Assembly: GCA_010093815.1 (NCBI GenBank) | Contig: ML996568.1 | DNA from: Pseudovirgaria hyperparasitica | Taxonomy: Eukaryota | DNA length: 63,891 nt | Strand: one strand, 5' to 3' | Part shown: one piece after another, positions 31,182-63,527 of the stretch | Layout: the number at the start of each line of letters is the position of its first letter | Numbering within the stretch: position 1 is the stretch's first letter | The notes under the pieces: generated by a model | What the model was told of the DNA's origin: nothing | Database searches by the model: none | What the model saw: the letters and a program-made list of their open reading frames with translations, nothing else | Position numbers and translations under genes: made by a program

Positions 31182-34100
31182 ATAATAATAATAATAATAA
31201 TATTAGTAAACTAGGTAGAGTACCACTCTATAGGCGCATGCCTCCTCTAGTCTAAGCTACTATATAAGAAGAAACCTACGAATAGGAAAAACTCCCTTAT
31301 ATCCATAACTACGCTCTATCTATCCTCTCGTTCTTTATATATATATAGCCCTAGGGGCTACCTATAGGCCTATAGTCTATATTATAATAGTTTACCCTTA
31401 GGTAGCACGTATAGATATGGAGATTATTAGTTAAGGGCTACCCTTAACTAATAATCGCGGTTCTCCTAGGGTTCTTCCGACGTATACCGGGGTTCTTCTA
31501 GTATATATTAGGCTTCTTCTAGTATATATACGCGGGTCTACTAGAACTAGGGGAGAGAAAGATATATAAGTATCTATCGGGCGACGTCCTTAGAGTACTT
31601 ATTAAGCTATCGCGTAATATTAGAGGTCCTCGTTATACGGACGAGGGCTTATCTTAGGGTATAGAGGCTAGAGTACGTCACGAGGTAGTAGTATATTATA
31701 CCTCTCCGGCCGTAGTCCTCGTACTAGGGAGATATATCTAGGACGCCTCTCTAGTAGAGGTAATATAGGAGACCTATAGCGCCTATTCGGGCTTAGAGGA
31801 GTATAGATACTTAGGCCTTCGTTAGCCCTTTATATATCTATTTACTTAGTTCCTTCTAAGGCCCTCGGATCTATTCTAGATATCTATTCTATTAGAAGGC
31901 CTACTAGGCTTTAAGTATCTCCCTCTATTTATTCTAGATCTACGACTATATAACGCGGCTAAGCTTCTTAGGGCTCTATTAGCTCGGGACGGTATCCGGG
32001 TTATTTTAAACCTTCTATATAGTCTAGCTCGAGTCCGCCTCTATATAGTATTTATATTATACTTAAGTTTATTCTATAGTAGGGAGGGCCTAGTAATATA
32101 CGCGGATACGTGTACGTAGTATAGCGAAGGTATATACCCTATCTTCTCCACGTTCTTATACTTATTATTTAGTAAAGTATATAAGTCTCTATATCTAGTA
32201 GAAGTTCTATATACTTATTACATTTATCTCGCGTTAGAGAAGTATCGTGTTAGTAGCTTTATATATACCGGAGATAAGGCGGAGTATATAGTTTTATATA
32301 GACTTAAGCTTTACCTACTAAGCTTATATAAGGGCCGTATACTAGTACTCGTATCTATATATAAAGGCTAGGCGTGCTAGGGAGACGTATAGCTATCTCG
32401 CCTTATCCCGGGCTATTCCCTATATAGATACCGTAATCTAGCGTATAGCGGTTTCTACCTAGAGGGCTCTAGAGATAGCGTATGCTACCTATGGTCTCTA
32501 TTTTAGCTTATTATTAATTATAACGCTAAGTGCGCGTATACTCTATACTAGTAGTTCTATAAAGGCGTTGATTTAGGGGCGACGTGCCCCCTCCCTAGTA
32601 GTCTATCCTCTATAGTAGTTAATAAAGTATATAAGCTAGTATTTTTTAGGTGTGAATTTTACTCCGTGGCGCTTTATCTACTAGATGCATTTCTCGTGGT
32701 CTCGTTCGAGTCGTGTATATATTCTACTAGTACTACTATCGACTATAAGGAGGTATATATTATCCGCGTATCCGACTATCTCTATATATTCTATTCTCTA
32801 AAGAAGGTCTACTATAAAGAAGAGGAAGAGGATTAGGGAGATAGTACTCCCTTACGGGATACCGTATACCGTCTCCTTATATTTACTTTAGTATCTAGAG
32901 ATATATATTTAAGTAGTCCTTTACGCGAGGAAGGACTATATAAATTATATAATCTACTTAGGTATTCGCCTTATCCGGAGGTTATAGATAAGTCTTATAT
33001 AGTTTACCTTATTAAACGCCTCTACTATGTCTAGGGAGAGTAGCGTAACGACTCGTCCTTATTTCTATATAGTCTAGATAACCTTAAGGATATATTAAAT
33101 AGCTATAATTAGGGAGCTTCCTACCTTCGCCTTCTAGTTTACTAGGAGAAGGCCGTGTACCTATACTACTATACTTATCTTCTTAGTAATTATAGCTTCT
33201 AGTACCTTACTAAGGTAGGAGAGGAGGGCGATCGGCCTCTATCCCTTTAGCGTATTTAGGCTCTTCCCTAGTTTTAGAAGTATAACTATATATATAGTTC
33301 GGAAGCTCTATAGATAGTATCCTATACGGGCGCACGCTCGGAATATATAGCCTATAATTAGTAAGGTCGCCTATATAGTCCTCTTAAGGCATCGATTCGG
33401 AATTCTATCTAGCCCGGGCGCTTTATTATTTAGGAGTGTCTTAATAGCGCCGAGTATATTATTATCCGTGATTTCCCTAGGGATACTTACGGCTTCCGGG
33501 TATTCCGTACTATTAATATCTAATAGATCTATAAGTTCTAGGAGAGGGAATATAACCTCTTATAGAATCTCTATTTTCTCGAGGCTTATAGAGTATATCT
33601 TTTCTTAATATATAAGAGGGGGTATAAGTGGTATAGGTATCGGGGAGGCGGTACTTTTAGCCTATTTTACTATATACTATAGTCTAGTAGTATTACGTAT
33701 ATATCTATCCGTAACTATACACTACTATTTACGTTACTTATTACGGAGGACTTTATCTTATTATCTTCTTACCTCTCTCTATTTATCCCACGCTTTAGAT
33801 ATACGGTTATAGTATACGCGTCTATATAATCTCCGGACTTCTCGCCTATACTCTTATACTTAAGATATACTTTTCGGGTCTAGGGGTCTATATATTTAGT
33901 ACGGCATATATTTATCTCTTACTTCCTAGTACGCCTATAGGAGTATATTCACGGCCTAGTTAATAGCCGGGCCATTAGATACGTTAACTATAGACGGGTC
34001 TAGGATCATTAATTCTAGGTCCTTTAGGTACTTTTCCTAGTTAGTATTCTTCTATAGCTATCGCCCTCATTAGTCTTAAGGGGTAGATATATCTATTACG

Positions 34101-36486
34101 GTCTCTATATATTCATGGTCGGAGTCTATCTATATAAGGCTTAGGCGGTAGTATTAAGTCCTATTATAAATATATCTAGTGGCTAGGGTAAGGTCGAGTG
34201 TAGATCCGCCCTTATCTTATTTATATTTTCGCTAGGTAATCTATTCTACTAGTATAAGAAGATATAGAAAGCCGTAGTATTAGGTACGTAGTTCTCTAGC
34301 TCGAAGCTCTTCGCGGGTAACGGTTAGTCTACCCTACTAGCTATAATAGAGGTTAAAGTCTCCTAGAAGGATATATTATTCTAGCTCGGTGGTACCCTTA
34401 AGTATATTATCCGCCTAAAGTAATCGGTTCTAATTATATATATTATATATATAGAGGGGTCCGATATTCGTCTAGAGGTATAGTATTATCCGGAGGTTAT
34501 CCCGTTTAGTATACGACTATAATAAGAGTAGAATAGACTTATAGACATAGAAGAGGACTCTCCTCTCCGGTCCTAGGGGGTGTATTATATAATATTCTAG
34601 GTGTGTTATTAGTTTATTCGTCTAGTAGTATTTATATAGCTCCTATATAGCGAGTATTATAGCTTCGGTCTCCTCGAGGAGTATCGCCTAGTTCTTACGT
34701 TTATACTATACGTTTATCTATATAATTAGAAGTACGTCTTAGTCTCTCATTAGGTACTAGAGAATATATAGGCCTATATATTCGTTCTACTAAGACGCGA
34801 CTATCCTTATACGGCGGCGGCCTTAGTAATTTCTTAGGGCCGTTCTATTATTAGCTTTCTCGGGATGGTTTACTATTCCTAACCGCTTCCTTATAAGGAG
34901 GTAGTCTATAGTAGTAGTATTATAGTAAAGAGAGGAACGGTAGTAGGTCGTATAGTTTATAGCTACCTTACTCCCTTTATCCGGATTAAGTAGATATATT
35001 TAGTAATCTATTTACGTTTCGCGCACGTAGCCGACTACGATAGGTACTTACCGTCGTAGTTAGAGTACTTTACCATGTCCCTATCTCTTTAGCTCTCTCC
35101 TCGTATCCCGTAGGGGCACTCCTAGGTACTATATTCTTATTAATACTACCTATATCTAGTCTTTTAGAAGTACCGCTATGCCGTATACCTATATCTCTAA
35201 TAGTTAAAGTACTATATTATCGCCTATGCTCTATCCCATGGTTCCGCTATAAGAAGCTCCCCTTCTACTAGGAATCCCTCTTATATAATTTAATACGCGA
35301 GGGTAGGGTCTTTAAGCTCCACTATTATAGTAGAGTATACCTTTAATCTAGTTTTAATCCCTTATATATTCTTCTACCATGCTCTTATAATCTTAATCCC
35401 TAGGTATTTTCGCTCGTTTAACTATTCTATCCGTGTAATATCCTCTTCTCCGATAACCTATCCGCTTATAGATATAGAGTATATCTATATTAGGTATATG
35501 GCCGCCCTAATAGAGGCGCCTAGAAAGATACTACTAATCGCGTTTAGATCGCGCGAGATAGTCTACTACACGATATTCGTTATTATAGTAAGTACTACTC
35601 CTTCTAGTATAAGTTTAGCGGCGATAATATTTAACTATATTCCCTTTTATTCGTTAATCTTACTTACTATATTCTTTAGGGATACTTACTAGACCTATAC
35701 TAGGGTATCCTTATCCTAGATTATAACGTGTATACTATATACCGTGTCGCCGGTCTAGGGGGCCCGTAGTATAGCCTCCGGTATTACTACTATTTATACC
35801 TATATACTAGGGCGCTTACCTTAAGTAAGTTCCTCCTAGATTCTACGTAGGCTAGCCTCTATTTAGTTAAGCCTACCCTCCGGTCCTTCTAGTTATATCT
35901 TCTTCTTCTCCTCTATAATTCCCTTTAGATTCCGGATAAGGTCCTAGAATATATATAGGAGGGTCTTCTAGCCCTCTCTAGCTTCCTTCTCTATATATAC
36001 TATCTAGTAGTTAATATAATCTAGGAGGGTTTCCCCTCTTAGGGTCCCCTTTATTCCGTCTATCTATAGCGGCGTGCGCCTTTAGGTATATTCTACGTTT
36101 TAGATAGATATATAGTTACCCTTAGTAATATTACTATATAGCCTTTTCTATCGTACTAGTAGGGGTATATCCGGTATATACTAGGGTATATTAGTACCTA
36201 AGGCCGCTATATTTATTAGTTAAGGGCTACCCTTAACTAATAAAAGGGGGTCGGTATATTAGCGTTCTAGTAGCGTGGTCCGTGCCTCTATCTCTGTAAG
36301 GATTTTAAGAGGGTATATATATATCTTTATACGGCGATAACGTCTTAGTTTCGACGCTACACGTACGTGCGTATAGTAGTAGTTAGTGTACTCGGTATAC
36401 TCTATTAATTAAGGTATATATCTCGCTATATTACCCCGAATAGACTAAGTTAGCCTCTTAGGGATGTAAAAGTTATAGTATCGTCT
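31182..36486 (-). mobile_element. Full-length Tad1-like LINE L1 (subfamily 1), RIP-inactivated
   Basis: (AAT)n tail at the left end; 15-bp TSD AAGTTTATAGCTATA (31167-31181 / 36487-36501). ORF1 and the APE-RT ORF2 are colinear with L2. Confidence 0.9.
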
Positions 36487-37419: not shown

Positions 37420-40400
37420 AAACTTAAACTTCTTATACTCTAACGGACTAAACTAGTTAATTCGGGGTAAAACAGCGATTTATATACATTAAACGATAGA
37501 GTATACCGAGTATAACAACCTCCGACATATATATATACGTGTAGTATATAATACGCGACGATACCGACGTATAGAGATACTATATATATACGCTTAAAGA
37601 TTCTTCGATAATATAAGCATAGACTATATCTAATAAATACTAACACGCTAACCCCCTTTTATTAGTTAAGGGCTACCCTTAACTAATAATTATAGCGGCC
37701 TTAGATACTAACGTACCCCGGCTTCCACCGGGTATATCCCTAATACTAGTACGGTAGAAACGGCCATATAGCGGTATATCCTAGAATAATTAAACCCCCG
37801 TCTAATAAACGACGAATAACTAAGGGCGTATAACGCTATAGATAATAGAGATAGAGGGGACCCTACCCGGGGAGACCCTCCTAGATAAGATTAACTACTA
37901 GATAGTATATATAGAGAGGGAAGTCGAGAAGAGAGAAATAGCCCTCCTTAGTATCTTTCGGAACCTTATCTAGAATATTAGAGAGCTTACCGTAGGAGTA
38001 AAATAGGCGCTAGAATTAGACCTAGAATCTAGACTAGATTATATAGAGGCTAGCCTATAGAGGATCTAGGAGGGCCTTACCTAGGGAAAACGCCCTAGCA
38101 CGTAGGTATAGGTCGCCGCATCTATAAACGGAATAGCTATGTTAGCTAAAATACTAAGGGCACCTATAGACGGGGTATATAGTATATAAGTTACTATCTA
38201 GGATAAAGAAGTACTTATATAAGTCTAGTAAGCGTCCCTAAAGGATATTATAAATAAGATTAATAAATAGAAAGGGATATAGTTAAATATAGTAGCCGCT
38301 AAACTTACCCTAGAAGATATAGTACTAACTACTACTACTAACACGGCCTAGTAGACTATCTCGCGTAACCCGAACGCGATTAACGATATCTTCCCTAGCG
38401 CGTCCGTCCGCGTAACCACGTACCCGATATAGATATATACTATCCCCGTCTAAGGACACGTTATTAGAGAAGATAATATTAAGCGAATAGAGTAATCTAA
38501 CGAACCGAAGTACCCTAGAATTAAGATCGTGAAGGCGTGGTAGAAGAACGTCTAAGGGATTAAGATAAAATTAAAAAAGTACTCTACTATAATAGTAGAG
38601 CTTAGGGACCCCGCTCTCGTCTATAGAATAATATAGGAGGGCTTCCTAGCCGAAGAAGAGCTACTTATAGCGGAACTATAGGATAGAGCATAGATAATAA
38701 CGTAATACTTTAACTATTAGGGATATAGATATACTAGATAGAGATACTCTTAGAAGACCGCCTATAGATAGTATAAATAGGGCTATAATACTAAGGAATA
38801 CCCTTATAAGACGTAGAGCGACGAGACGCGAGATAGGGATACTACTAAGTACTCTAACTACGACGGGAAACATCTATCCTAGTCAATAACATATACGAAA
38901 CATAAGTAGGTCGTAGAATATATTAACGCGATAAAGATAAGAGAAGTAAGGTAGATATACTAAGCTATAAGGCCCTCGCTGCCCTCGCCGCTATCCCTAA
39001 CTTTACTTATAAATCTAGTAACCACCCCCTAAAGGGGAGAGGATAACGTGTAATAGTATACTATATAGAGAAAGATAGGCCGACCCTAGAGTATACTTAA
39101 AGCCGCTACCGCGCGAGAATAATCACGCCTTAGCGCCACTAATATATAGACTCGAACTTTCCCTAGCACCTAATAAGGGTATAAGATATACTTATTATTA
39201 TATAGGCGAACGTATAATATAAATAAGAAAACTAAGCGACGCTTCTAGAAGAAATAGGAGCCGTAATAATAGCTATCTAGGAACTATATAAACACTACTA
39301 AACTAATAAGCTAATAATACACCTAGAATACTATACCATCTACCCTATAGGCCCGGATAGGAGAGTTATATTTTATATATATAAGTTGATCCCGCTCTTA
39401 GAATAGTCTTATACCGAATCTAATAACCTCTAGATAACACTATATCTCTAGATAAGTATAGGGCCTATCCATATCTATAATATCTATAATTAATAGCGAT
39501 CGCTTACGCTAGATAATATACTAGAGGGTACTATAACGCCGGGATAATATATCCTCCTAGGCGACTTTAATCTCTACTATAGGTAGTAGAGAGGCCTAGC
39601 TATCGCGAGAGAAGAACTTAGAGTAAGGGAACTATATATACGGTGCCACGACTTCCTATACCTCCTTATATCTATAGGGTAGATTATCTAGAGGAAATAT
39701 AAATAGGATAAGGACGGGTCTACGCTCGACCTTACCCTTACTACCGAGTATATTAGCTATAGAGTATAGTACTACCGCCCGAGCCGGATATAGACGGACT
39801 CCGACCATAAATATATAGAAACCGTAATAGATATCTCTACTCTTAACGAATAATATAGAAAATAGCTATAGAAGGATACTAATTAGGATAAATACCTAGA
39901 GGACCTAGAATCGGCGATTCTAGACCCCTCTATAGTTAACGTATCTAACGGCCTAGCTATAGATAAGGCCGTGTAAGTCCTCCTTTAAGTATACTAAGCC
40001 ACGAGAGATAAATATATACTATACCGAATATATAGACCCCTAGAAGCGAGGGGTATACCTTAAATACGAGAGTATAGAAGAGACGCCCGTAGACTATATA
40101 CACGTATATACTATATCCGGATAACTAAGGCGTAGGAAGAGTAGAAGGAAGTAGTACGATATCGTAATAGGGCCCTCCGTAATAAATAATAAAAGTAATA
40201 GTATATAATTACTAATAAATACACACGGTAAGCCGTAGAGCTATAGTATATAGTAAAGTAGGCTAAGGGTATAGACGCGCCGATACCGCCACCACTAATA
40301 CCTCCCCTAATATACTAAGAGAGAATATACTCTATAAGCCCGGAGAAGACGGAGATCTTATATAAAGTTATATTCCCCCTTCTAGAGCTAGTAGACCTAT

Positions 40401-42731
40401 TAGATATTAATAATACTAAATACCTAGATATAATTAATATCCCCTAAGAGGTTACTAAGGAGGATATACTCGACGCTATTAAAGTACTCCCGAATAATAA
40501 GGCACCTAGACCGGATAGAATACCGAATAGATACCTTAAATATACTATACTAGCTACCCTACCGCTTATTAGTTATATATTTTAAGTATATATTAAGAAC
40601 GGATACTACCCCTAAAGCTTCCGGGCCGTCTATACTATTATACTCCCGAAACTAGAGAAGAACTCTAACTCCCCGAAAGGATAGAGGCTAATTACCCTCC
40701 TCTTCTATCTTAGAAAGATACTAGAGGCTATAATCGCGAAGAAGATAAGCGCCATAGTATAGAAATATAACCTCCTTCTAGTAAACTAGAAGGCGAAGGC
40801 TAGAAGCTCCCTAATTACCGCTATCTAATATATTCTCGAAGTTATCTAGACCGTATAGAAGTAGAGACGTATAGTAACGCTACTCTCCCTTAATATGGCC
40901 GGCGCATTTAATAAAGTAAACTATATAAGACTTATCTATAACTTACAGAAGAGGCGTATACCCGTATAGATTACGCGGTTTATATAGTTCTTTCTTACTA
41001 AAAGAGTTACCTAGATATATATTCCTAGATATCGAAGTAAGTATAAGAAGACGGCTTACGGCATCCTATAAGAAAGTACTATCTCCCTAATTCTATTTCT
41101 CTTCTTTACTATAGACCTTCTCTAGAGAATATAACGTATAGAGGTAGTAGGGTACGTAGATAATATATACCTTCTAGCTATCGATAATAATACTAGCTAA
41201 ACATATAGACGACTCGAATAAGACTATAGAAGATACATCTAATAGATAAAGCGCTATAGAGTAAAGTTCGCCCCCGAAAAGTACTAACTTATATACTTTA
41301 TTAACCGCTATAGGAAATGGGCTACTAGGGAAGGCGAGCGACGCTCTAGAATAGACGCCTTTAACGAACTACCGATATAAAGTATACGCGTACTTAGTAT
41401 TATAATCGATAATAAGCTTAAATAGAGACCATAGGTAGCATACGCCGTTTCTAGGGCCCTCTAGATAGAAGCCGCTATATAATAGATTATAGCCTCTACG
41501 TAGGGAACCGCCCGGGATAAGATATACTAGCTATATATATCTATAGTACGACCCGCCTTTACGTACGGATACGAGTACTAGTACACGGCCCTTATATAGA
41601 CTAGGCGAATAAAGCTCGAATCTATATAGAACCGTATACTCCGTCTTATATTAGGCGTATATAAAGCTACTAACACGGTACTACTATAACGCGAGATAGA
41701 CGTTATAAGTATATATAACTTCTACTAGATATAGAGGGTAGTATACTTTACTAAATAATAAGCATAGAAATATATAGAAAATATAGAATATACCTTTACC
41801 GCGCTACGCGCGCGAGTTAGTATATACTACTAAGTACTCTTATATATAGACCGGACTCGACTATAGTATAAGTACCCGATAGAAATAGACTCGAACTAAG
41901 TAGTATAAGAGATTAAGGATAACCTAGATACCCTTCTAGACTAATAGAGCCTTTAAGAGCTCGGACGAAGTATATAGTCGTGGATCTAAGATAAGTAGAA
42001 AGAGATACTCTAGGCCTAGTAGGCCTTCTAGTAGAATAGATATCTAGAGTAGATCTAAGAACTATAGAAGGAGCCGAGTAAATAGATATATAAAGGGCTT
42101 ATAAAGGCCTAGGTATCTATACTCCTCTAAGCCCGAACGGGCGCTATAGAACTTCTATACTATCTCTATAAGAGAGGCGTCCCTAATGTATCTCTATAGT
42201 ATAAGGCGTGTAGCTAGAGAGATATAATACGCTACTATCTTATAATATACCCTAATCTTTATACGTAAAGATAGAAGCTTATCTATATAATAAGAACCTC
42301 TAATATTATACGATAGCTTAATAAGTACCCTAAGGACGTTACCTAGTAGATAATTATATATCTACTACTCCTCTAATTCTAGTAGACCTAGAAATATATA
42401 CTAGAAGAGACCCGGCACACGCTAGTAGTAACCCGATATATACTAGAAGAACTCCGGGAGAACCCTAATTATTAGTTAAGGGTAGCCCTTAACTAATAAC
42501 CTCCGTATCTATACGTGCTACCTAAGGGTAAAATAATAGTAATATAGGCTATAGGCTAATAGGCGTACTCTATAGCTATATACTTAAGACGAAATAGAGG
42601 TTTAACGAGATATAGTTATAGATATAAGGAAGTTTTTCTCTATAGGGTTTCTTCTTATATAATAGCTTAGACTAGAGGAGACATAGGCCTATAGAGTACT
42701 ACTCTACCTAGTTATATAATATTATTATTAT
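37420..42731 (+). mobile_element. Full-length Tad1-like LINE L2 (subfamily 2), RIP-inactivated
   Basis: ~18-bp TSD TATTATATATCTTTAATA (37402-37419 / 42732-42749). Endonuclease motifs LLGDFN ~39553, STLDL and DSDH; RT motifs KAP.PD.IPN ~40499, MAGAFN.V, G.(PQG)ST.S.ILF ~41060, GYVD(D) ~41150 and KFAPEK. (TTA)n tail. Confidence 0.92.
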
Positions 42732-43113
42732 TATTATATATCTTTAATATAGAAGGGAGTTATAACTTATACGCCTAGTTATTAGTTACATAAGTAATCT
42801 TATATAGATCTATTATTATATAGTTAAGCTTCTTCTTTAGTCTAATACTATAAATATTCTTATTATTTAGTAAAACTTTATCCCTAATATTAAAGATTAT
42901 AGGTTTTCTACCCTTATTATAGTATGATTTACTATAATCCATAGTATCTTATAGTAACTTTATAATACTTCTTTATATTTAGAATAGTTCTATAGTAATT
43001 TCTATTACTTTAACATTAGGTTATTCTACTTTAAACTAAGTCTCTAAGAACTATATATTATAGTTTTAACTAAAGTTTACTTTAAATGGACTTATGTAGG
43101 TTAACGTATATTA

Positions 43114-46100
43114 TATAAGAATAGGGTTATTGGATAGTAGTATAGTTAGATAGAATAATAGGGTGTATTCTATTATAGAACGAATTACTACTAAACCCTT
43201 TTAGTAGGAATCTAAGAGTATATATATAAAGAGACGCCGATCTATCTAGTATATAACTATTTACTACCCTTCACGTTACCTTCTAACCCTATTAGCTAAG
43301 GTATATATAGGTCGGGTCCTACCTAAGGCTAAGTCCTAATAATTATCCCTTCCCTCTAGGAAGCTACCCTTAGTAACCTAGATTATTACCTATCTCTATA
43401 TCTCTATCCTAAGTCTTATAAGACCTTAGTTATTCTCTACGCTTCGTCTTAGATACTTACCGATATTTACTAATCTAAGATTTATATAAGCGTTTTCCTA
43501 ATAAACTAGATTTTATCTATCTTAACTTCTTATATAGGTAAGATTATCTAATTAGGCCTAGCGTATCACGTAATATAATTAGGTAAGCCTAGGTACTACC
43601 TATATTAAAATCTTTTCTTAGAAATATTCCTTTCTTTAAAAAACTTCTTAACTCTTTATAGAGTTTTTTAGATTATTAGATATATTACCCGATCCTTATA
43701 GACATAGATTTATATAGATTTACTATAATTTAGTACGATTTACGCAATTTACTAATTTTCGTACTATCCTTAGCTAGTAATAATATAATTCGTAATAATC
43801 CGTATAAATTAATAATAATCTTAATATAGTTTTCTAAAATCTTAATACTCTAAAGTAATTAGTACGGAAATAGACGTCTTCGAATAATCTCTATCTCGTA
43901 TATATTACCGATATATCGAAAGCTATTAATCTACCCCGACCTAGGCCGGGCTCTAATAATCTAGCTATATATTATTATAGTTATCGCTTTCCGTCGTATA
44001 TTACTTACGGTAGTACTAAATCTATAATATACGGTACTTATATAACTAAGAAGCGTTATTACTTATAGGTATTTAAGTAAGTTCGAAGAACTTTACGTAG
44101 ATTTACTTATATCAGTATAGATTACTACTAGGCCTCTAGTAACCCCTACTAATAAGAAGCGTGGTACTACCGATCGTAACGCCTTAGAGAAGGCTTTCTA
44201 TATACTATATATCTAAGGTAAGGGTTACGCCTAGGAGTACGATTCTAATAAGATCTGTAAGGATTTATTAGAATCTACTATAGCTATTATTACCGCGATT
44301 ACTAGGTAATATCGTTTTTCTTAAATTATTATAGATTCTTACTAATATATATTAATCTCTATAATAGTACTAAAATCTCTACTACTTCGGATTTCTTTCT
44401 ATATACCGGCGATATTAGAATTCCTAGAAAAGGTTCTAGTAAAAAGGCTAAGGTTCCTTCCTCACGCGTGCTAAAGAGCTATAAATTTAGGGAAGATAGC
44501 TCTAATCTAGAAGTTTCTATACTAAAGGTATATGGTTCTATACTAATCGTTAAATCTTTTCGCTAATTTATATAATTCTTAGCGTGCCCGCGCCGGTCCG
44601 TCTCTCTCTATCCCGGGTCCCGCCGCTCCATAGATTTCTATAGAGAAGTTTATAGCTATAAGGCGTGCTATATAGAATTTATAGCGTCGGAATAAAAGGC
44701 TAGAGACTTATATTATAAAGCTCTATACTATGCTAAATAAGAACTAGCGGAAGGAATTAGATATAACTATCGCGGTAATTAGTACTTCTACTCCTACTCC
44801 AACTTAATCGGTTTAGATCTATACTAATTAGTACTAATATATCTCTTTTATCTAGTGTTTTTAGTTTTTTAGTTTTAATTTTAAAGCGATCTTACTTCTT
44901 CTAGATAGATTAGTACGAGTTTATATAGATCTATATAGATCTTTATATTTTCTTTTAGCTTTCTTAATTTTATCTTTCTTTAATAATAACTTCTTTAATC
45001 TCTTTAGTAATCTATACCGATCTATACCGATCGGCACCGATTTTTAATGTCCATTTCTCTTAGTAAATTATTTTTCTAAGTCTCTTTTTTAGTTAAATTT
45101 TTTTAAAGTTCTAAGTTCGAACTTTCTAAGGAAGTTCCTTAATTCCTTAGAATGTTTTAAAGATCTATATCTCTTTTACCTTCTTTCTTTTAGGCGGCCG
45201 TTCTTAGTACCGAACTATACTAAAAAACGTTAAATCGCTATACTTTAGTATAATTCTCTACGATTCCGCGGCTTCCTTTACTAATTACTACTTATATACT
45301 AATATCGCTACTTTACTAATATTTATTATAGGTTTCTAAGTATCTTCGTTAGAATTATATCCTTTCTAACGAATTTTATATAGCCACGTACTATCTTCGG
45401 CGTGTTACTAGCTAAGTATCTACTTAACTTCGTAGATATTTATACCTTCTTACGTAACTACTTTATATAGTATCTATTCGGAATGATCCGGTAATAATAA
45501 GGCATGAAATAGCTCAAGAAGTATAATATAGAATATATTATATATCTTTAACGTGGGAGGGAGTTTTAACTTATACGCCTAGTTATTAATTACACGAGTA
45601 ATCTTAAATAGATCTATCATCGTATAGTTAAGCTTCTTCTTCGGCCTAATACTACGAATATTCTTACTATTTAGTAAAACTTTATCCCTAACATTAAAGA
45701 TTATAGGTTTTCTACCCTTATTATAGTATGATTTACTATAATTCGTAGTATCTTATAGTAACTTTATAATACTTCTTTACGTTTAGAATAGTTCTATAGT
45801 AATTTCTATTACTTTGATATTAGGTCGTTCTACTTTAAACTAAGTCCCTAAGAACTACGTATTATAGTTCCGACCGAAGTTTACTTCGAACGGACTTACG
45901 TAGGTTAACGTATATCGGCTATTATTATATGCGAATTCCGCGATATAGACTAACCTTACCTAGTTATTCTACTTATAGTTATAATATACGCGTAAATACG
46001 CCTCGACTATCTAATTCTACCGCTCCGTCTATCTATCTATTTATAGATAGAACGTAGTACTAAGTTTCTACTTAATTCCTAGTATATAGTAGAAATCCTT

Positions 46101-51573: not shown

Positions 51574-53850
51574 TAAACGTTATATATTTTTATATAGTTC
51601 TTTATATATTTATAAAGACCTAGCTAGTTATATATCCTTCGGATTAAATTAACTATTCTTATAATGCTAAAGTACTCTACTAACGCGTAATTATACTATT
51701 CCCTTAAAATATTAATTTATAAGCCGTCTTCTAGTATATAGAGTCAGTCTTAGAAGTAGATTGTATCTAATCGTCGTTTCTACCTTAATAACTATAGTAG
51801 ATCTATAGCGCTTCCTTTTATACTTATAACTTTCTTTACTAATATATTAGAATTCTAGGTAGATTTAATTAAGTCTTTAAGGGTTTTCTTAGTTTCTTAG
51901 ATATTTATTTAGATTACTTAATACCCGCTCTAATTCCCGCGGAGAATCGCTAAAAGTATCCTAGCTTCTAGTATTCTATTAGATAACTAGTCTTATAGTA
52001 TCTAAAGTATAGTATAGTCTAAATTATACTAACTATCTATATTATTCTATAACGATTTCTTATAATCTTTATACCGCGATAGAGGATTAGCTTTATTCTC
52101 TCTTCTAGCTTTATATAAGATTCTAAAGTTCAATATTAATATCTACTTAGCCTAATATACTTATTAGCGATTAAGGACCTTAGTTAATATAAAGTAATAT
52201 AGATTTACGTAATCCGATAATAATTCAATCTAATATATAGAGCCTTCTAAATAATATCGCTATTACTTAAAACTCTTAATAATTATAAGTAGTTTCTAGT
52301 TATACGTGTTATAACACGTCTCTATATCTACTATTTTATAGAAAAAGAAGGTAACTAGGTACTATTATACCTTATCTTTCGTATCTTTATACGGTTAACT
52401 AATAATTCTAGTAATTATAAATTCTAACGTGTTAGTTTCGACCTAAATATACTTCTTAGAATTAAAATACCTAAGAATCGGCGTAGTTATAAAGTAATTC
52501 TTTAACGATCGAAACGTATCTTATACTTCCGGTATTAACTATATCTCGACTAACTTAGCTTTACGCTATACTTATCTATCTATAAGGATTTTACCGCTAT
52601 TCTCTATAAGTTTATTAAGTAATACCGTAATTTATAAGAAGTCTATAATAAATTTATAATAATAGTTTATAAAATCTATAAACGTTCTAATTTAACGTAT
52701 AGTAGTAGGTTCTAGCTATTCTATAATAGTCTTTACACGCTCTAGCTTCATTTTTAGGCCGCTATATATTATAATAAAGCCGAGAAACCTAACTTCTTAT
52801 TAGTAAAACTCGTATTTAGATAATTTTATATAGAGTTTATACTACCTTAGATAATTTAGTACTAATTTCACGTATTCCTTATAATTCTATATACTATTAG
52901 AGTAAATTAGTATATTATTAAGATAAACTATATAAATCACGTTAAGTAATTCTATAAGTATAGTATTAATATATCCTTAAAACGCTTCTAGTGTATTTAT
53001 TAGCCTAAATAGCATAATAGTATACTTAAAATAACTATATCTAGTCCAAAATACAGTTTTCTACTTATCTCCATAACAAATTTAAAGCCAGTAATATATA
53101 TCTTATAAATCTAGCTTTATAAAGTACTTTACCTTTATTAATTAGTCTAAAGATTTACTAACTAGCGGTAATAGATAATAATTCTTCTTAGTTACTATAT
53201 TTAGTATCTAATAGTTAATATATAGATATAAACTTCTATCTTTCTTCTTTATAAAGAGAATAGGTATACTAGCTAATAATATACTATAACGTATCTAGTC
53301 TCTTCTAAGGTATTCTTTAATATATTTATAAAGAACTTAGAGTTCTAGTCTTAAAAGTAGATAAAGTAGGCTATAAGGGACGTCTACTCCCTCTTTAAGC
53401 TTAATCTTTAGCTTATATAGTCTATAATTAGGGAGAAGTAACGTATCTCCTACTAAAAACATATCTATATACTATAAATATACGTTAGATAGCGTGTCTT
53501 TACCCTAATTATTACTATTATTCTTATCTTTATTAATAATTAATAAGGACGTAAGATAGATTAGCGATAATTAGGTCTATACGGTAAGGTTCTATACCTT
53601 CTTACTAATAGTTATAACTTACTAGTATAATTTACTATAGTATTATTAAAATATTAATATCTCCTTCTAAAAATTAAGGATAGGGTTTAGGCGTCTAAGC
53701 TAAGGTATCCCTAGAATTATATTCTATTAGCTAATATTAGCTACGATAAATTTATTAGATATCTACTATTTTATTATCTTTAAGTTATGAACTTTATAAT
53801 TCGTTATAGCTTTACCTAAAGTTCTAACTTTATATCTATTAACTATAATA

Positions 53851-54786
53851 ATAATAATATTAGTGTTTAACTAGGAAGAACTATATATATAGCCATATAT
53901 ATGCTCCACAGGCTTAGGCCTCCTCTAGTATTGGCTGCTATGTATATAAGAAAACCTCCTGTGATTGGCTCCCTAACTAGACCCTGTTACTAACCTAACC
54001 TGGCCTAGTCTAAGTCCTTGAATCCCATTGGGTGACAAACTTACTTTCTTATCCTTATATTAGGCTTTTATTACTATATTGGTACCGGCTCTTAATAACG
54101 CCCTAACCAACTATAGTAGATATTACCTTTCTTGTGATTGGGCAGGTCGCTAGGCTAGGCCTAGTCTTTTATTCCTGTGTTACCGTGTTTTTCCTATCCA
54201 TGGGAATATAGCTTTGCGCCGGGTAGTAGTCATTGATTAAGATAACTAATACCGGAGGGGGTGTATATCTAATAGGTCCATGCCTTAGCACTAACCCTAG
54301 CTAGGCCGAATTCGGAAATTGTTCTTCGGGGCTATGTAATCGTCTATAGGTAGGCGGGATACTTAATTGGGTATTGCTGTCTATTTCGTGGTTGCCGAGC
54401 CGGAGTAAGCGCGAGCTAAGCCGGATTAGGGTGGACAAGGCCCCGGTATATGGTGAAAATTCTATGATTCGAGCTAAGCTAGTTGTGGGTCTAGCCGCTC
54501 TAGGCGTCGCTCTACCACTCAAGGTGGCTTGGCAGGTGGCTATATTAGGTAATTCTCATCATGTGATGACGGTATAGTCATTTTTCACATTACCTAATGG
54601 TCGCTCAGGACTAAGTAGTTATGTGACGGCAACCTTCACGTCACGTGCTCGCTTAGCCCCGCACACTTTTGATAGAGCGTGCGAAAACTAGTGTATGAAA
54701 AGGTGGCCGTTGTAGGATTCGAACCCACGACGTTGGATGACAAACGCTTCTAGTAACGTAGCATACTACCACTACGCCACCTGGCC
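53851..54786 (-). mobile_element. tRNA-derived SINE, 936 bp, with LINE-like 3' end
   Basis: ~18-bp TSD TATCTATTAACTATAATA (53833-53850 / 54787-54804). The head carries Pol III boxes A and B. The last ~100 nt resemble the LINE 3' ends, followed by a (TTA)n tail. Confidence 0.88.
54704..54786 (-). promoter_or_regulatory. tRNA-like SINE head with internal Pol III promoter (not a functional tRNA gene)
   Basis: GGCCAGG-TGGCGTAGTGG (box A) ... GTGGG-TTCGAAT-CCTAC (T arm, box B) -AACGGCCA. The long variable region is Leu/Ser-like, and only 4 of 7 acceptor-stem positions pair. Confidence 0.8.
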
Positions 54787-56294
54787 TATCTATTAACTAT
54801 AATAGTTCGACTAACTTTACTAAGATTATATAATAATCTATACTCCTTTACGAGAATCGACGAAATATAGTTATCTTCTATACTAGTATCTATAAGGGCC
54901 TATATAGTTTTATTACCATTTACTATAGATAATAATACTTTTAGTAATATTAGATCTTTACTCGCTAGAAGGCGCTATAGCTCCTCCTAAGTATATATAA
55001 TTTAGCTAAGAATATGGTTAGGTCTTATATACTAGCCTATTCTTTTTTTAGATTCTTATAGTTAGGTAAAATATATTCTATTTCTCTATACTTATAGTAA
55101 CGAAGTGCGCTATAATCCTACTATTTTATAATAGGTATTATATTTAAGCCTATGCCTTATTCTTTTCCGTGTTAAGAAGTACTACCCTAATTATTTTAGT
55201 ATCCTCTTAACACGTTTCTACCCCGATTTATACTCTTCTAGCGCTAATTACGGTAAGATTACTCTTAATCGAACGTATTTAATCGACCTCGTTTCTAACC
55301 TATATAGGGTTCGTTAGTTTTACCTAGAGAGCCATATTCCTTAAGGATATAGTAGTATTTATTAGCTTTCTCCTCTAATTTATATAGATAGTTAAAACTT
55401 AATAATACTATTTCTAGTCTTTTATAGATTAACGGAAGTAGTACTTTACGAAACTAGAATATATAAATATTTTTCTATAGCGTAGGGATATTATTCTATA
55501 GGTTTTAGAGGTATTATAGTAGTTAAGTAGATATCTAGTTTAGTCGTTATACTACGCTTCTTAACTTAGATAGTACCTTTCTTTTACGTTCTCTATCCGT
55601 TCTAAGAGTGTTTAGTATAAATATAGCTAAATATTTCTAGGTTATCATAGATAGTAGCTATACTTCCTTCTATCTATTCTATTAATTTTAGAATTATAAG
55701 TCTAGGTATTATTCTCCGAACGAAATATATTATACTTTAGTAGAAAAGAGTAGAGGGTTATTAAGGAAGTACTTTTTATAGTCTCTCTTCTAGTCTTTCT
55801 ACTTCTTTTAGTTCTTCTCTATAAATATAGTTAGGTCTTTAGATTTTAGTATACCTAGGAAAGAAGTAGAGTAAATTAGTAATAAAGCGGCCTAGTATAT
55901 AGTAGATTATTATAACTCTAATAGTAGGTAAACTAATTCCGCCTAAATTAGTATAGAAAGTCGTCTATCTACTATCGTTCGGCGTAGTTCTTTAAGAGAC
56001 TCCTTAAGTTCTTATTTCTTTATAAGGAGTTTCGCGCGTTCTATCTATTCTTTAAGAGTTTAAATCTCTTAAGCCTAATTCACGACGTATTCCTAAAGTT
56101 TAGTAATAGTTTATTATAATACCTTATGTAGCTCCGCCACGACTCGTTATCTAGCTTTATATTATTAGAAGTTACTTAGTATATCTACTATTTCTTTATC
56201 TAAAAGCTCTATGATTTAGTCTAATATCTCTACTTCTCGGTTAGAAATAGCTAGAATTAATACTAATTATAGAGGATCCCTATTATTTAATATA

Positions 56295-59200
56295 ATAATA
56301 ATAATAATAATATTATATAACTAGGTAGAGTAGTACTCTACAGGCCTATGCCTCCTCTAGTCTAAGCTATTATATAAGAAGAAACCCTATAGGGAAAAAC
56401 TTCCTTATATCTATAACTATATCTCGTTAAACCTCTATTTTATCTTAAGTATATAGCTATAGAGTACGCCTATTAGCCTATAGCCTATATTACCGTTATT
56501 TTACCCTTAGGTAGCACGTGTAGGTACGGAGGTTATTAGTTAAGGGCTACCCTTAACTAATAATCGGGGTTCTCCCGGGGTTCTTCCGGTATATATTAGG
56601 TTACTACTAGCGTATACCGGGTCTCTTCCGGTATATATTTCCGGGTCTACTAGAATTAGAGGAGTAGTAGATATATAATTATCTACTAGGCGACGTCCTT
56701 AGGGTACTTATTAAGCTATTATATAATATTAGAGATTCTTATTATATAGATAAGCTTCTACCTTTACGTGTAAAGATCGGGGTATATTATAAGATAGTAG
56801 CGTATTATACCTCTCTAGCCGCACGCCTTATACCATAGAGATATATTAGGGACGCCTCTCTTATAGAGGTAGTATAGAAGTTCTATAGCGCCCGTTCGGG
56901 CTTAGAGGAGTATAGATGCCTAGGCCTTTATAAGCTCTTTATATATCTATTTACTCGGCTCCTTCTATAGTCCTTAGATCTACTCTAGATATCTATTCTA
57001 CTAGAAGGCCTACTAGGCCTAGAGTATCTCTTTCTACTTATCTTAGATCTATAACTATATACTTCATCTAAGCTCTTAAAGGCTCTATTAGTCTAGAAGG
57101 GTATCTAGATTATCCTTAATCTCTTATACTACTTAGTTTAAGTCTATTTCTATTAGGTACTTATACCGTAGTCGAGTCCGGCCTATATATAAGAGTACTT
57201 AGTAGTATATACTAACTCGCGCGCGTAGCGCGGTAAAGGTATATTCTATATTTCCTATATATTCCTATGCTTATTATTTAGTAAAGTATACTACCCTCTA
57301 TATCTAGTAGAAGTTATATATACTTATAACGTCTATCTCGCGTCGTAGTAGCACCGTGTTAGTAGCTTTATATACGCCTAATATAAGACGGAGTATATAG
57401 TTCTATATGGATTCAAGCTTTATTCGCCTAGTCTATATAAGAGCTATATACTAGTACTCGTGTCCGTACGTGAAGGCGGGTCGTGCTATAGATATATATA
57501 GCTAGCGTGTCTTATCCCGGGCGGTTCCCTACGTAGAGGCTATAATCTATTATATAGCGGCTTCTATCTAGAGGGCTCTAGAAACGGTATATGCTATCTA
57601 TGGTCCCTATTTAAGCTTATTATCGATCATGACGCCAAGTACGCGTATACTTTATATCGGCGGTTCATTAAAGGCGTCTATTCTAGGGCGTTACTCGCCT
57701 TCCCTAGTAGCCTATTTTCTATAGCGGTTAATAAAGTATATAAGTTAGTACTTTTCGGGGGCGAACTTTACTCTATGGCGCTTTATCTATTAGATATATC
57801 TCCCGTGGTCTTATTTAAGTCGTCTATATATTTAGCTAGTATTATTATTAATAGCTAGAAGGTATATATCGTCTACGTACCCTACTACCTCTATACGTTA
57901 TATTCCCTAGAGAAGGTCTATAGTAAAGAAGAGAAATAGAATTAGGGAGATAGTACTTCCTTATAGAATGCCGTAAGCCGTCTTCTTATACTTACTTCGA
58001 TATCCGGGGATATATATCTAGGTAACTCTTTCGGCGAGGAAGGACTATATAAACTACGTAATCCACGCGGGTATACGCCTCTTCTATAAGTTATAGATAA
58101 GTCTTATATAGTTTACTTTATTAAATACGCCGGCTATATTAAGAGAGAGTAGTGTTACTATACGTCCCTACTTCTATATAGTCTAGACGACTTTAAGGAT
58201 ATATTAGATAGCGGTAATTAGGGAGCTTCTAGCCTTCGCCTTCTAGTTTACTAGAAGAAGGTTATATTTCTATACTACGGCGCTTATCTTCTTCGCGATT
58301 ATAGTCTCTAGTATCTTCCTAAGATAGAAGAGGAGGGCGATTAGTCTCTATCCTTTCGGGGAGTTAGAGTTCTTCCCTAGTTTTAGAAGTATAATAGTAT
58401 AGATAGCCCGGAAGCTTTAGAGGTAGTATCCGTTCTTAATATATACTTAAAATATATAACTAATAAGTAGTAGGGTAGCTAGTATAGTACGTTTAAGGCA
58501 TCTATTTAGTATTCTATCTAGTCCGGGTACCTTATTATTCGGGAGTACTTTAACGGCGTTAAGTATATCCTTCTTAGTAACCTCTTAGGGAATATCGATT
58601 ATATCTAGATATTTAGTATTATTAATATCTAATAGATCTACTAGCTCCGGGAGGGAGAATATAACTTTATATAAGATCTCCGTCTTCTCCGGGCTTATAG
58701 AGTATATTCTCTTTTAGTATATTAAAGGAGGTATTAGTAGCGGCGGTATCGGCGCGTCTACACCCTTAGCCTACTTTACTATACGCTATAGCCCTATAGC
58801 TTACCGTGTGTGTTTATTAGTAATTATATACTATTACTTTCGTCGTTTATTACGGAGGGCCCTATCACGATATTATACTACTTCCTTCTACTCTTCCCAC
58901 GCCTCGGTCGTCTAGATATAGTATATATATATATATAGTCTACGGGCGTCTCTTCTATACTCTCATATTTAAGATATACCCCTCGCTTCTAGGGGTCTAG
59001 GGGTCTATATATTCGGTATAGTACGTGTTTATCTCTTATAGCTTAGTATACTTAAAGGAGGACTTACACGGCCTTATCTATAGCTAGGCCGTTAGATACG
59101 TCGACTATAGAGGGGTCTAGAATCGCCGATTCTAGGTCCTCTAGGTATTTATCCTAATTAGTATCCTTCTATAGCTATTTTCTATATTATTCGTTAAGAG

Positions 59201-61615
59201 TAGAGACGTCTATTACGGTTTCTATATATTCGTGGTCGGAGTCCGTCTATATCCGGCTCGGGTAGTAGTACTATACTCTATGGCTAATATGCTCGGTGGT
59301 AAGGGTAAGGTCGAGTATAGACCCGTCCTTATCCTATTTATATTTCCTCTAGGTAATCTACCCTATAGATATAAGAAGGTATAGAAAGTCGTGGCACCGT
59401 GTATATAGTTCCCTTACTCTAAGTTCTTCTCTCGCGATGGCTAGGCCTCCCTACTATCTATAGTAGAGATTAAAGTCGCCTAGGAGGATGTATTATCCCG
59501 GTGTCGTAGTGCCCTCTAGTATATTATCTAGCGTAAGCGATCGCTATTAATTATAGATATTATAGATATAGATAGGCCCTATACTTATCTAGAGATATAG
59601 CGTTATCCGGAGGTTATTACGTTCGGTATAAGACTATTCTAAGAGCGGGATCGACTTATATATATAAAATATAACTCTCCTATCTAGGCCCGTAGGGTAG
59701 ATAGTATAGTATCCTAGGTGTGTTATTAGCTTATTAGTTTAGTAGTATTTATATAGTTCCTAGATAGCTATTATTACGGCTTCTATTTCTTCTAGGAGCG
59801 TCGCTTGGTTTTCTCGTTTATATTATACGTTCGCCTAATAATAATAAGTATATCTTATACCCTTATTAGGTACTAGGGAAAGTTCGAGTCTATATATTAG
59901 TAGCGCTAAGGCGTAATTATTCTCGCGCGGTAGCGGCTTTAAGTATACCCCGGGGTCGGCCTATCTTTCTCTATATAGTATACTATTACGCGTTATTCTC
60001 TCCCCTTCGGGGGGTGGTTACTAGATTTATAAGTAAAGTTAGGGATAGCGGCGAGGGTAGCGAGGGCCTTATAGCTTAGTATATCTACCTTACTCCTCTT
60101 ATCTTTATCGCGTTAATATATTCTATAACCTACTTACGTTTCGTACACGTTACTGACTAGGATAGGTGTTTCCCGTTATAGTTAGAGTACTTAGCGGTGT
60201 CCCTATCTCGCGTCTCGTCGCTCTACGTCTTATAAGGGCATGCCTTAGTATTATGGCCCTATTTATACCACCTATAGGCGGTCTTCTAAGAGTACCTCTG
60301 CCTAGTATACCTATATCCCTAATAGTTAAAGTATTATATTATTACCTATGCTCTATCCCATGGTTCCGCCGTAAGTAGCTCTCCTTTAGCTAGGAAGCCC
60401 TTCTACGTTATTCTATAGGCGAGAGCGGGGTCCCTAAGCTCTACTATTATAGTAGAGTACTTTTTCGATTTTATCTTAATCCCTTAGACATTCTTCTACC
60501 ACGCCTTTATAATCTTAATTCTAGGGTACTTTAGTTCGTTAGATTACTCTATTCGCTTAATATTATCTTCTCTAATAACGTGTCCTTAGATAGGGATAGT
60601 ATATATCTATATCGGGTACGTGGTTACGTAGACGGACGCGCTAGGGAAGATATCGTTAATCGCGTTTAGGTCGCGCGAGATAGTCTACTAGGCCGTATTA
60701 GTAGTAGTAGTTAGTACTATACCTCCTAGAGTAAGTTTAGTAGCTACTATATTTAACTATATCCCTTTCTATTTATTAATCTTATTTATAATATCCTTTA
60801 GGGACGCTTACTAGACTTATATAAGTACTTCTTTATCCTAGATAGCGACTTATATACTATATACCCCGTCTATAGATACCCTTAGTATTTTAGCTAATAT
60901 AGCTGTTCCATTTATAGGTGCGGCGACCTATGCCTACGTACTAGGGCGTTTTCCCTAGGTAAGGCCCTCCTAGATCCTCTATAGGCTGGCCTCTATATAA
61001 TCTAGTCTAGATTCTAGGTCTAATTCCGGCGCCTATTTTACTTCTATAGTAAGCTCCCTAATATTCTAGACGAGGTTCCGGAAGATACTAAGGAGGGCCG
61101 TTTCTCCCTTCTCGACTTCCCTCTCTATACGTACTATCTAGTAGTTAATCTTATCTAGGAGGGTCTCCCCGGGTAGGGTCCCCTCTATCTCTATTATCTA
61201 TAGTATTATACGCTCTTAGTTATTCGTCGTTTATTAGACGGGGGTTTAATTATTCTAGGATATACCGCTATATGGCCGTTTCTACCGTACTAGTATTAGG
61301 GGTATACCCGGTAGAAGCCGGGGTACGTTAGTACCTAAGGCCGCTATAATTATTAGTTAAGGGTAGCCCTTAACTAATAAAAGGGGGTCGGCGTATCGGC
61401 GTTTATTAGATATAGTCTATACTTATATTATCGAAGAGTCTTCGAGCGTATATATATAGTATCTCTATATATTAGTATCGTCGCGTATTATACGCTATAC
61501 GTACGCACGTATGTCGGAGGTTATTATACTCGGTGTACTCTATCGTTTAATGTATGTAAATCGCTGTTTTACCCCGAATTAACTAGTTTAGTCCGTTAGG
61601 GTGTAAGAAGTTTTT
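56295..61615 (-). mobile_element. Full-length Tad1-like LINE L3 (subfamily 2, sister of L2)
   Basis: 15-bp TSD CTATTATTTAATATA (56280-56294 / 61616-61630) and (AAT)n tail. It is the reverse complement of L2, differing mostly by C/T and G/A transitions. Confidence 0.92.
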
Positions 61616-61948: not shown

Positions 61949-62308
61949 AAGAAACCTTTATAAAAGAAAAAACTCCCTTCTCTCTATAATTATATCTTAT
62001 TAAACCTTTATATTATCTTAAGTATATAGCTATTAGAAATATCTATAGTCTATAATCTATAGTACTATTATTTTACCCTTAGATAGTATATATAGAGTAT
62101 AGGGGTTATTAGTTAAGGGTTACCCTTAACTAATAATTAGAGTTCTTCTAGGGTTCTTCTAGTATATACTAGAGTCTATCTAGTATATATCTAGTTACTT
62201 CTAGTATATATATCTAGATCTATTAGTATTAAGGAAGAGAGAGATATATAAGTATCTACTAGGTAATCTCCTTAGAGTACTTATTAAGCTACTATATAAT
62301 ATTAGAGG
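61949..62308 (-). mobile_element. 5'-truncated old LINE L0 (3' region), split by Gypsy C; its tail is the (AAT)n at 22014-22072
   Basis: Colinear with the L1 3' region (~31268-31626), including the palindrome at 62106-62136. It is flanked by ATATTTAATTAA at 62309-62320, which matches 21999-22010. Confidence 0.7.
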
Positions 62309-62320
62309 ATATTTAATTAA

Positions 62321-63055
62321 TACTCTAAGAGACTAAACTAGTTAACTTAGAGTAATATAATAATTTATATATATTAATTAATAGAGTATACTAAGTATAA
62401 TAACCTCTAATATATATATATATATATATATAGTATATAAGATATAATAATACTAATATATAGAGATACTATATATATATACTTAAAAACTCTTTAAAGA
62501 TATAAGTATAGACTACTACTACTAAATACTAATATACTAACTCCCTTTTATTAATTAAGGGTAGCCCTTAACTAATACTATAGAGGCCTTAGATACTAAT
62601 ATACCCTAGCTTCTACTAGGTATATCTCTAACTCTAGTATAGTAGAAATAGCTATATAGTAGAATATTCTAGAATAATTAAACCTCTATCTAAAAAGTAA
62701 TATATAATTAAGAATATAGAGTACTATAGATAAAGAAGAAAGAGGGGACCCTATCTAGAGATACCCTTCTAGATAAAATTAACTACTAGATAGTATATAT
62801 AGAGAGAGAGATTAAGAAAGGTAAGACTACTCTTCTTAGTATCTTCTAGAGCCTAGTCTAGAATATTAAGAAACTTATTATAGAAGTAAAATAAATACTA
62901 GAAATAAGTCTAGAATTAAGGTTAGACTAAATTAAGGCTAGCCTACTAAGAATCTAGAAAGGCCTTACCTAGAAAAAATATCTATCTATCTAGGCCTAGA
63001 TTATAGTACTACTAGATAGTATAACTAGAATAATCTAAATACTAAGAATATCTAT
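62321..63055 (+). mobile_element. 5' portion (5' UTR and ORF1 start) of an old, heavily RIPed LINE L4, interrupted by L5
   Basis: Colinear with L2 37436-38170, including the 5' palindrome at 62548-62577. Confidence 0.8.
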
Positions 63056-63527
63056 AATAATAATAATAATATTAGTAAACTAGGTAGAGTACCACTCTAT
63101 AGGCGTATACCTCCTCTAGTCTAAGCTACTATATAAGAAGAAACCTACGAATAGGAAAAACTCCCTTATATCCATGACTACGCTCTATCTATCCTCTTAT
63201 TCTTTATATATATATAGCCCTAGGGGCTACCTATAGGCCTATAGCCTATATTATAATAGTTTACCCTTAGATAGCACGTATAGGTGCGGAGATTATTAGT
63301 TAAGGGCTGCCCTTAACTAATAATCGCGGTTCTCCCGGGGTTCTTCCGACGTATACCGGGGTTCTTCTAGTATATATTAGGCTTCTTCCGGCATATATAC
63401 GCGGGTCTACTAGAACTAGAGGAGAGAAAGGTATATAAGTATCTATCGGGCGATATCCTTAGGGTACTTATTAAGCTATTGCGTAATGTTAGAGGTCCTT
63501 GTTATACGGACGAGGGCTTATCTTAGG
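63056..63527 (-). mobile_element. 3' end of LINE L5 (subfamily 1, near-identical to L1)
   Basis: (AAT)n tail followed by a near-identical match to 31182-31657. The match stops abruptly at 63527. Confidence 0.85.

Follow-up and report, generated by a model that had tools for sequence, protein, structure and literature searches.

The nearest known system to the palindrome described here is the Conserved Hairpin Site (CHS) found in GalEa elements, which are Copia elements of fungi. In the accessible part of its description, the CHS is a single site confined to one Copia clade; it lies directly after the 5' long terminal repeat (LTR), where it replaces the primer-binding site, and it is built from a 9-bp core, CHSeq1 (CTGATCAGT/CTAATTAGT), and a complementary CHSeq2 that lies 12 to 41 bp away across a variable loop, with an extended CHS of 33 to 62 bp being common to distant families within one host species (PMC5445492). 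We studied a 31-nt palindrome in a 63,891-nt stretch of contig ML996568.1 of Pseudovirgaria hyperparasitica (GenBank assembly GCA_010093815.1), the whole of which we call the window. There it flanks the coding region of a Tad-like long interspersed nuclear element (LINE), and elsewhere in the genome it recurs in an unrelated Gypsy element. Like the CHS, it is a short conserved palindrome or hairpin in fungal retroelements that is common to distant elements of one host. Unlike the CHS as portrayed in that text, it is a perfect 14-3-14 palindrome of different sequence with a 3-nt loop, has two to three copies per element, lies away from the LTR, and occurs in a LINE as well as in a Gypsy element.

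A stem-loop near the 3' end is also a feature of stringent-type LINEs, and in the accessible text on these elements such stem-loops are shared with their short interspersed nuclear elements (SINEs), whereas our palindrome, about 240 nt from the LINE end, has a 5' twin and is missing from the cognate SINE (PMC5135761). The targets of VANC, an element-encoded, trans-acting anti-silencing protein of the Arabidopsis VANDAL transposons, are likewise repeated sequence-specific sites inside a transposon; the available sections of that work describe them as often being tandem repeats that differ between related families, and they provide a functional model for the palindrome (PMC5735166). Our case departs from the VANC targets, as those sections present them, in that one long palindrome is common to two element classes and its reader is only putative. 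The repeats of Drosophila TART elements are long direct repeats, whereas the palindrome is 31 nt long, self-complementary, found in either orientation, and present in an LTR element as well. What it has in common with the perfect non-terminal repeats of TART, in the partial account available, is that a non-LTR element carries a matching internal repeat pair near both ends (PMC5537684). An earlier note on this DNA, made from the sequence alone, had taken such a twin terminal palindrome to be undescribed for Tad1 LINEs, and we found no description of the motif in a literature search that did not take in Repbase-type libraries, subscription papers, or supplementary files such as the tables of CHS sequences that accompany PMC5445492.

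The palindrome and its two carriers

The window is a cluster of repeats altered by repeat-induced point mutation (RIP). It holds the nine copies of the palindrome that the earlier note had located, eight of them exact and one with two mismatches, against none expected from 100 shuffles. The unmutated form reads TTATTAGTCAAGGG-CWG-CCCTTGACTAATAA; a reconstruction with TCAGTC in the left arm was discarded, given that it has a single genome match, in a diverged subfamily, and that the main unmutated form has TTAGTC. Stop codons lie within the palindrome in two of the three frames. Across the 35.4-Mb genome there are 469 exact sites, and among the 50 of these that were listed, 30 are in the LINE, split evenly between its 5' and 3' ends (15 each), the Gypsy element accounts for the other 20 (11 at a site we call G2 and 9 at a site we call G3), and none lie elsewhere. 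The eight exact unmutated cores are all in retroelement sequence as well, and neither set contained a copy in ordinary host DNA. Six one-mismatch matches with other spacers look like chance, as all six lack extended arms and any match to the LINE or the Gypsy element. The same sequence occupies four nonhomologous sites (LINE 5', LINE 3', Gypsy G2, and Gypsy G3), and a variant occupies a fifth (Gypsy G1). The possibility that the motif is common outside LINEs was thus borne out in part: about 40% of the sites are in the Gypsy element and none are in ordinary host DNA.

In all three full-length LINEs of the window, the palindromes bracket the coding region, as had been proposed, and three further copies are in LINE fragments (Table 1). 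A nearly intact LINE copy on contig C52 has both open reading frames (ORF1 and ORF2), a (TAT)n tail, and a 14-bp target duplication, read from the sequence, and it has no LTRs. The unmutated LINE encodes PF14529 and PF00078 domains together with a weak, below-cutoff PF00098 match, and its nearest named matches are fungal (Podosphaera, Aspergillus, and Fusarium). By these matches, rather than by a reverse transcriptase (RT) tree, the carrier is probably a Tad-like fungal LINE; like members of the Tad clade, it has an ORF1 zinc knuckle, an ORF2 with endonuclease and RT, a short-repeat tail, and a target duplication. In the C52 copy, the ORF1 ATG lies 2 nt after the 5' palindrome with no upstream ATG in the untranslated region (UTR), which confirms the earlier placement of the palindrome just upstream of the ORF1 start. 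Since the C52 copy lacks 272 nt near the ORF2 end, that end was read from an unmutated 3' fragment on contig C26, whose frame terminates after RENSDY at a TAG that is nt 5 to 7 of the palindrome. In 22 of the 25 copies examined, this TAG shares its frame with the RT motif, and the remaining three carry deletions. The ORF2 ending suggested earlier, ENPDYQSRAALD followed by two stops, was wrong: the TAG is present in unmutated copies, and the end is ENPDY followed by a stop.

Palindromes in the genome are often paired 7.3 kb apart, and these pairs belong to an 11.4-kb Gypsy element whose LTRs span about 380 nt and which does not resemble the LINE at the nucleotide level. Site G1 is the variant, with a 10-bp stem, and lies in an open frame near the gag start, roughly 0.4 to 0.5 kb past the LTR. 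The exact palindrome at G2 is in frame between protease and RT, and in less-mutated copies an in-frame ATG follows it 10 nt downstream. G3, also exact, sits at the end of an extra ORF, some 140 nt upstream of the 3' LTR, and its left-arm TAG is in frame with that ORF in 18 of 19 copies. The stop of the extra ORF is uncertain, given that in-frame stops occur at codons -43, -20, -11, and -9 in 18/18 copies and another six, likewise in 18/18, lie within the conserved domain, which reflects RIP saturation; a scan of open Gypsy frames for shared stops was uninformative for the same reason. The protease-RT linker of Gypsy relatives does not align, and no empty preinsertion version of a Gypsy site was recovered by this comparison. 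Flank comparisons gave no significant sign that the Gypsy sites derive from the LINE (best z of about 3 among roughly 200 comparisons).

The extra ORF is on the sense strand after the integrase and spans about 1,000 codons (L023:5300-8278; contig C4 near 406800-409800). Its 67 genome matches all contain stops, and its family comprises 781 homologs, the only one whose source is named coming from a fungus. The ORF retains both HxD...H...R and Cys/His motifs, and in a fold search one homolog folds like PhyH/YbiU dioxygenases, suggesting that the product may be a PhyH-like 2-oxoglutarate/Fe dioxygenase with a putative zinc-binding motif. Assignment to TET/JBP was considered and is unsupported, as no TET/JBP protein is among the fold matches listed for a homolog. 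A PDB sequence search with the extra ORF returned nothing relevant.

Variation, relatives, and neighboring elements

Between LINE subfamily A and subfamilies B and C, the arms show 0 transversions in 56 positions compared with 20 in 150 in the 5' UTR (P of about 3e-4). The earlier claim that the palindrome is better conserved than the UTRs stands on this count and has to be tempered near the motif, where about 20 to 45 nt beside each palindrome are also well conserved between A and B/C. The palindrome is retained across LINE lineages whose flanks are 69 to 75% identical or barely alignable, and among distant LINE remnants it is exact on C26, carries a bulge on C45, and has the loop ATT and one A>G on C19. 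In the C45-type subfamily, an ORF2-like frame appears, by eye, to read through it. Arm changes are all single sided (A>G twice, a single bulge, a T>C-type mismatch that belongs to a diverged subfamily, and the shortened G1), and none of the five sites shows a compensatory change, which argues that the sequence is kept and not only the shape. Homologous sites have a CAG loop in some subfamilies and a CTG loop in others. Of the 135 B/C-type 3' sites, four have flipped loops, and a central C or G was seen in none; when 18 subfamily C copies were aligned, the four flips fell on two haplotype backgrounds. The background is about 8 private transversions in about 25,000 cells, a count that leaves out flanking columns, the unrelated upstream part of one copy, and three linked haplotype columns. 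These flips fit repeated microinversion of the hairpin, and recombination between copies could also spread a single flip.

Outside this host, the motif is missing from all 80 metagenome loci with LINE relatives, and no LINE relatives were found in viral contigs. None of the 24 intact relatives, in which the ORF1 start and the ORF2 stop are both present, carries the twin motif, the longest word common to both ends being 13 nt; our element differs from these Tad-clade relatives in this respect, and judged by them the palindrome does not appear to be a trait of the LINE family. An exact match is absent from three public collections (metagenome, viral, and prokaryote), and a search for the peptide trace of the palindrome in 275 proteins gave one internal match, which we took as chance. 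The palindrome therefore appears, on these comparisons, to follow the host and not the element tree. In one metagenome series, a repeat adjoining related LINEs contains another near-perfect palindrome of 29 nt with a central W (L166:4075-4103, L169:4042-4070, and L193:8550-8578).

The SINE in the window provides a control. It has only the last ~95 nt of the LINE in common, lacks the motif, as the earlier note had said, and was nevertheless mobilized, so the palindrome is not needed for SINE mobilization, and the conclusion drawn earlier that it is not the RT recognition signal holds. The tRNA-like head of the SINE was judged by eye, and ARAGORN found no tRNA in it.

Several further features of the LINEs were observed. 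The ORF1 stop and ORF2 start overlap as ATGA (window 39173-39176; L039:7693-7699), an arrangement suited to translational coupling. The unmutated LINEs L039:4390-9421 (C52) and L064 (C39) both lack the C-terminal Cys/His region of ORF2 through the same 272-nt deletion, and their 3' palindromes share one A>G change. Two of four sequencing runs contained an empty-site joint for the entire deletion-bearing LINE, which suggests that a derivative with this deletion has been mobile recently. The LINE 5' UTR and the open frame of the palindrome are spanned by a frame of 119 codons that has neither stops nor an ATG (L039:9068-9427, minus strand). Subfamilies A, B, and C are often recombinant: B and C have common UTRs and different coding regions, which diverge from about 20 nt after the 5' palindrome, and L067 is subfamily A at its 5' end and C at its 3' end with a switch near nt 1000 to 1100 (subfamily set L025-L033, L067, and L071). 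A second unmutated LINE family is present on the 1.8-kb contig C105 (L007), which holds no element ends. An unmutated chimera on contig C47 (L061:7770-9884) combines a host-like reading frame, a LINE piece, and an inverted pol piece of a third LTR element beside a dynamin-like gene identified by eye; a 7-nt microhomology at its junction was rejected on sequence comparison. The window also contains a 7.4-kb LTR element (23542-30936; also 43108-56300, inserts included) that has 226-nt LTRs, lacks the palindrome, and is nested together with copies of the LINE and the SINE.

Table 1. Positions in the window of the palindromes and of the elements associated with them
Feature	Position	Strand	Remarks
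Full-length Tad-like LINE, subfamily B (focal)	37426..42738 (ends approximate)	+	RIP mutated; (TAT)n tail
ORF1 of focal LINE, gag-like, zinc knuckle	37692..39176	+	RIP broken; start codon now ATA; stop overlaps ORF2 start
ORF2 of focal LINE, AP endonuclease and RT	39173..42475	+	RIP broken; end within 3' palindrome
5' palindrome, focal LINE	37659..37689		Loop CTA (CTG type on sense strand); 2 nt before ORF1 start
3' palindrome, focal LINE	42469..42499		Loop TAG (CAG type); ORF2 stop TAG at 42473-42475 in left arm
Full-length LINE, subfamily A	31182..36474	-	About 73% identical to B
5' palindrome, subfamily A copy	36213..36243		Loop orientation same as in its 3' copy
3' palindrome, subfamily A copy	31424..31454		
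Second full-length LINE, subfamily B	56292..61615	-	
5' palindrome, second subfamily B copy	61350..61380		
3' palindrome, second subfamily B copy	56533..56563		
3'-type palindrome in LINE 3' fragment	62106..62136		Fragment 61949-62308, minus strand
Decayed 5'-type palindrome in older LINE 5' fragment	62548..62578		Fragment 62320-62978, plus strand
3'-type palindrome in subfamily A 3' fragment	63293..63323		Fragment 63051-63527, minus strand
SINE with tRNA-like head and target duplication	53845..54787	-	~940 nt; no palindrome; inserted in LTR element

Explanations for a shared palindrome

We tentatively favor the explanation that the palindrome is a sequence-specific, orientation-independent cis site of two unrelated retroelements that is read by a dimeric factor, given that its sequence is constant across positions and element classes, seems to follow the host, occurs in either orientation, and is absent from ordinary host DNA. 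Symmetrical double-stranded DNA, or a hairpin stem, would most likely be recognized by a dimeric protein, which would aid transcription of both elements or their escape from silencing. The first candidate for this reader would be a stress-responsive host basic leucine zipper (bZIP) protein of the Yap1/AP-1 type because each arm holds the heptamer TTAGTCA/TGACTAA, the two heptamers being inverted and 11 nt apart. TGACTAA and TTAGTCA are both among the Yap1 response elements listed in the accessible part of PMC6545440; the constant spacer belongs to no known Yap1 site, at least as far as that part of the source extends, and binding is only predicted from the 7-nt match. The right-arm heptamer is present in every unmutated full or right-arm copy, and the left-arm heptamer is altered in the 3' copies of C52, C39, and C22 and in L006. 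On this explanation, the palindrome would be old in the LINE lineage, and short fragments captured in the course of reverse transcription or repair would have carried it to its other positions, where it would have persisted only if no protein was broken, such as at UTR edges, ORF tails, and interdomain linkers. Where it landed in a dispensable tail, the ORF would come to end inside the palindrome through the stop codons of the palindrome itself. Part of the ORF-edge placement therefore needs no function, given these stops in two of three frames and survival in tolerant places. That short motif-bearing pieces move is indicated by the C47 junction, at which a 55-nt LINE piece (24 nt of UTR plus the palindrome) is joined exactly at the arm edge to a third element.

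Several points weigh against a shared protein-binding site. A bZIP protein needs 7 nt, which leaves the constant AGGG-CWG-CCCT spacer unexplained, and one A>G change alters the left-arm heptamer in recently mobile copies. Selection need not be invoked for the identity of the sites, which self-templated repair and gene conversion could maintain. The capture route seems unproven on the sequence comparisons, given that a LINE-flank origin of the Gypsy sites was not significant. No flip was seen at G3-type sites and at part of the G2 sites, where 4/135 versus 0 of an assumed 60 is not a significant difference. In addition, the LINE relatives compared are distant (about 28 to 37% ORF2 identity), and some have short 5' flanks. 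A more specific version, which we regard as improbable, casts the palindrome as the place where a sequence-specific anti-silencing system docks in a RIP-active fungus; the Gypsy extra ORF product or a host dimer would be recruited there, and the LINE would have pirated the site at both ends of its coding region.

A neutral or selfish hitchhiker is less probable than a shared site read by a dimeric factor, and we consider it somewhat unlikely. In this case an ultrashort insert would have entered both elements several times, been amplified with them, and been kept perfect by arm-to-arm repair. It could be, for instance, an RT template switch product or the remnant of a Tc1/mariner-type transposon that duplicates TA (25 nt plus TA), and its ORF-edge placement would reflect survival bias and its own stops in two of three frames. 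The motif can be read as T-TA-[25 nt]-TA-A, a net 27-nt insert that preserves the frame, as seen in gag and pol, and TA is found on both sides of the 25-nt core at four of the five site classes; the left TA is absent at G1, which lacks the duplication expected there. Loop flips far above background (4/135 versus about 8 in 25,000 cells) indicate that the hairpin rearranges itself, and breakpoints fall at the motif both in the C47 chimera and in a fragment truncated inside the left arm. An insert of this kind should have been found elsewhere, however: by our estimate, five entries into about 17 kb predict thousands of copies in the rest of the genome, and no ordinary host copy was seen. Unlike a Tc1/mariner-type miniature inverted-repeat transposable element, the palindrome occurs at 0/50 listed and 0/8 unmutated sites outside retroelements, and no parent transposon with the same ends was found, all 22 lone right-arm matches being decayed or deleted LINE palindromes. 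No empty preinsertion version could be aligned, and an ATG fixed at +2 in three subfamilies is left unexplained. A length of 25 nt is probably too short for transposase synapsis.

We judge it unlikely that the palindrome acts as an RNA element, either through local hairpins of 14 bp, which would damp the initiation of ORF1 and mark where translation terminates, or through 5'-3' pairing that circularizes or dimerizes the RNA, roles of the kind that the earlier note had entertained for the LINE. Pairing of the two ends is energetically possible by computed energies, the predicted 5'-3' duplex having -53.9 kcal/mol (inverted) or -49.3 kcal/mol (direct) compared with -36.2 kcal/mol for two hairpins of -18.1 kcal/mol each. 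The UTR regions fold better than shuffles (z of -5.9 and -4.3), largely because of the palindrome itself, which lies just 5' of the ATG in the LINE and 10 nt 5' of an in-frame ATG at G2. Both A>G arm changes (2/2) retain G-U pairing on the sense strand, which fits an RNA hairpin, if weakly. A LINE-specific start, stop, or circularization role is nonetheless weakened by the three Gypsy copies, two of which are inside reading frames, and end pairing would need no copy of the same sequence in Gypsy and no third copy lying internally. The absence of compensatory changes at five sites, the apparent read-through in one LINE subfamily, the mobilization of the SINE without the palindrome, the lack of an Rfam match at five loci, and the lack of twin hairpins in 24/24 relatives all point the same way. 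The last proposal, a lox-like 14-3-14 recombination site that excises or inverts the ORF cassette, is largely refuted and seems very improbable, even though the architecture of the palindrome resembles recombinase sites, the coding regions of B and C part so close to the 5' palindrome, and the sole aberrant junction ends exactly at an arm. A genome-wide search for 5' sites with a nonstandard right flank returned one match, the C47 chimera, and no empty or inverted cassette; no joint between the palindromes appeared in four DNA runs from two samples, whose contigs leave out rare forms. The breakpoints of other subfamily recombinants are distant from the palindrome, and no recombinase domain was found in the LINE or the Gypsy element, the search for one being limited to these two elements.

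Significance for fungal retroelements

The cis signals of retrotransposons are normally family specific, and one exact 31-mer in both a LINE and an LTR element departs from that rule. The sharing implies one of two things: a factor, supplied by the host or by an element, of which both carriers make use, or a movement of very short DNA between retroelement classes that has not been described. Both implications bear on how fungal transposons switch on or evade silencing. If the palindrome is neutral, it would be a clean case of survival bias making an insert resemble an ORF boundary signal. The existence of a natural unmutated copy makes the question open to direct testing. If the anti-silencing docking site were true, the palindrome would represent a cross-class shared cis code among the retroelements of one host.

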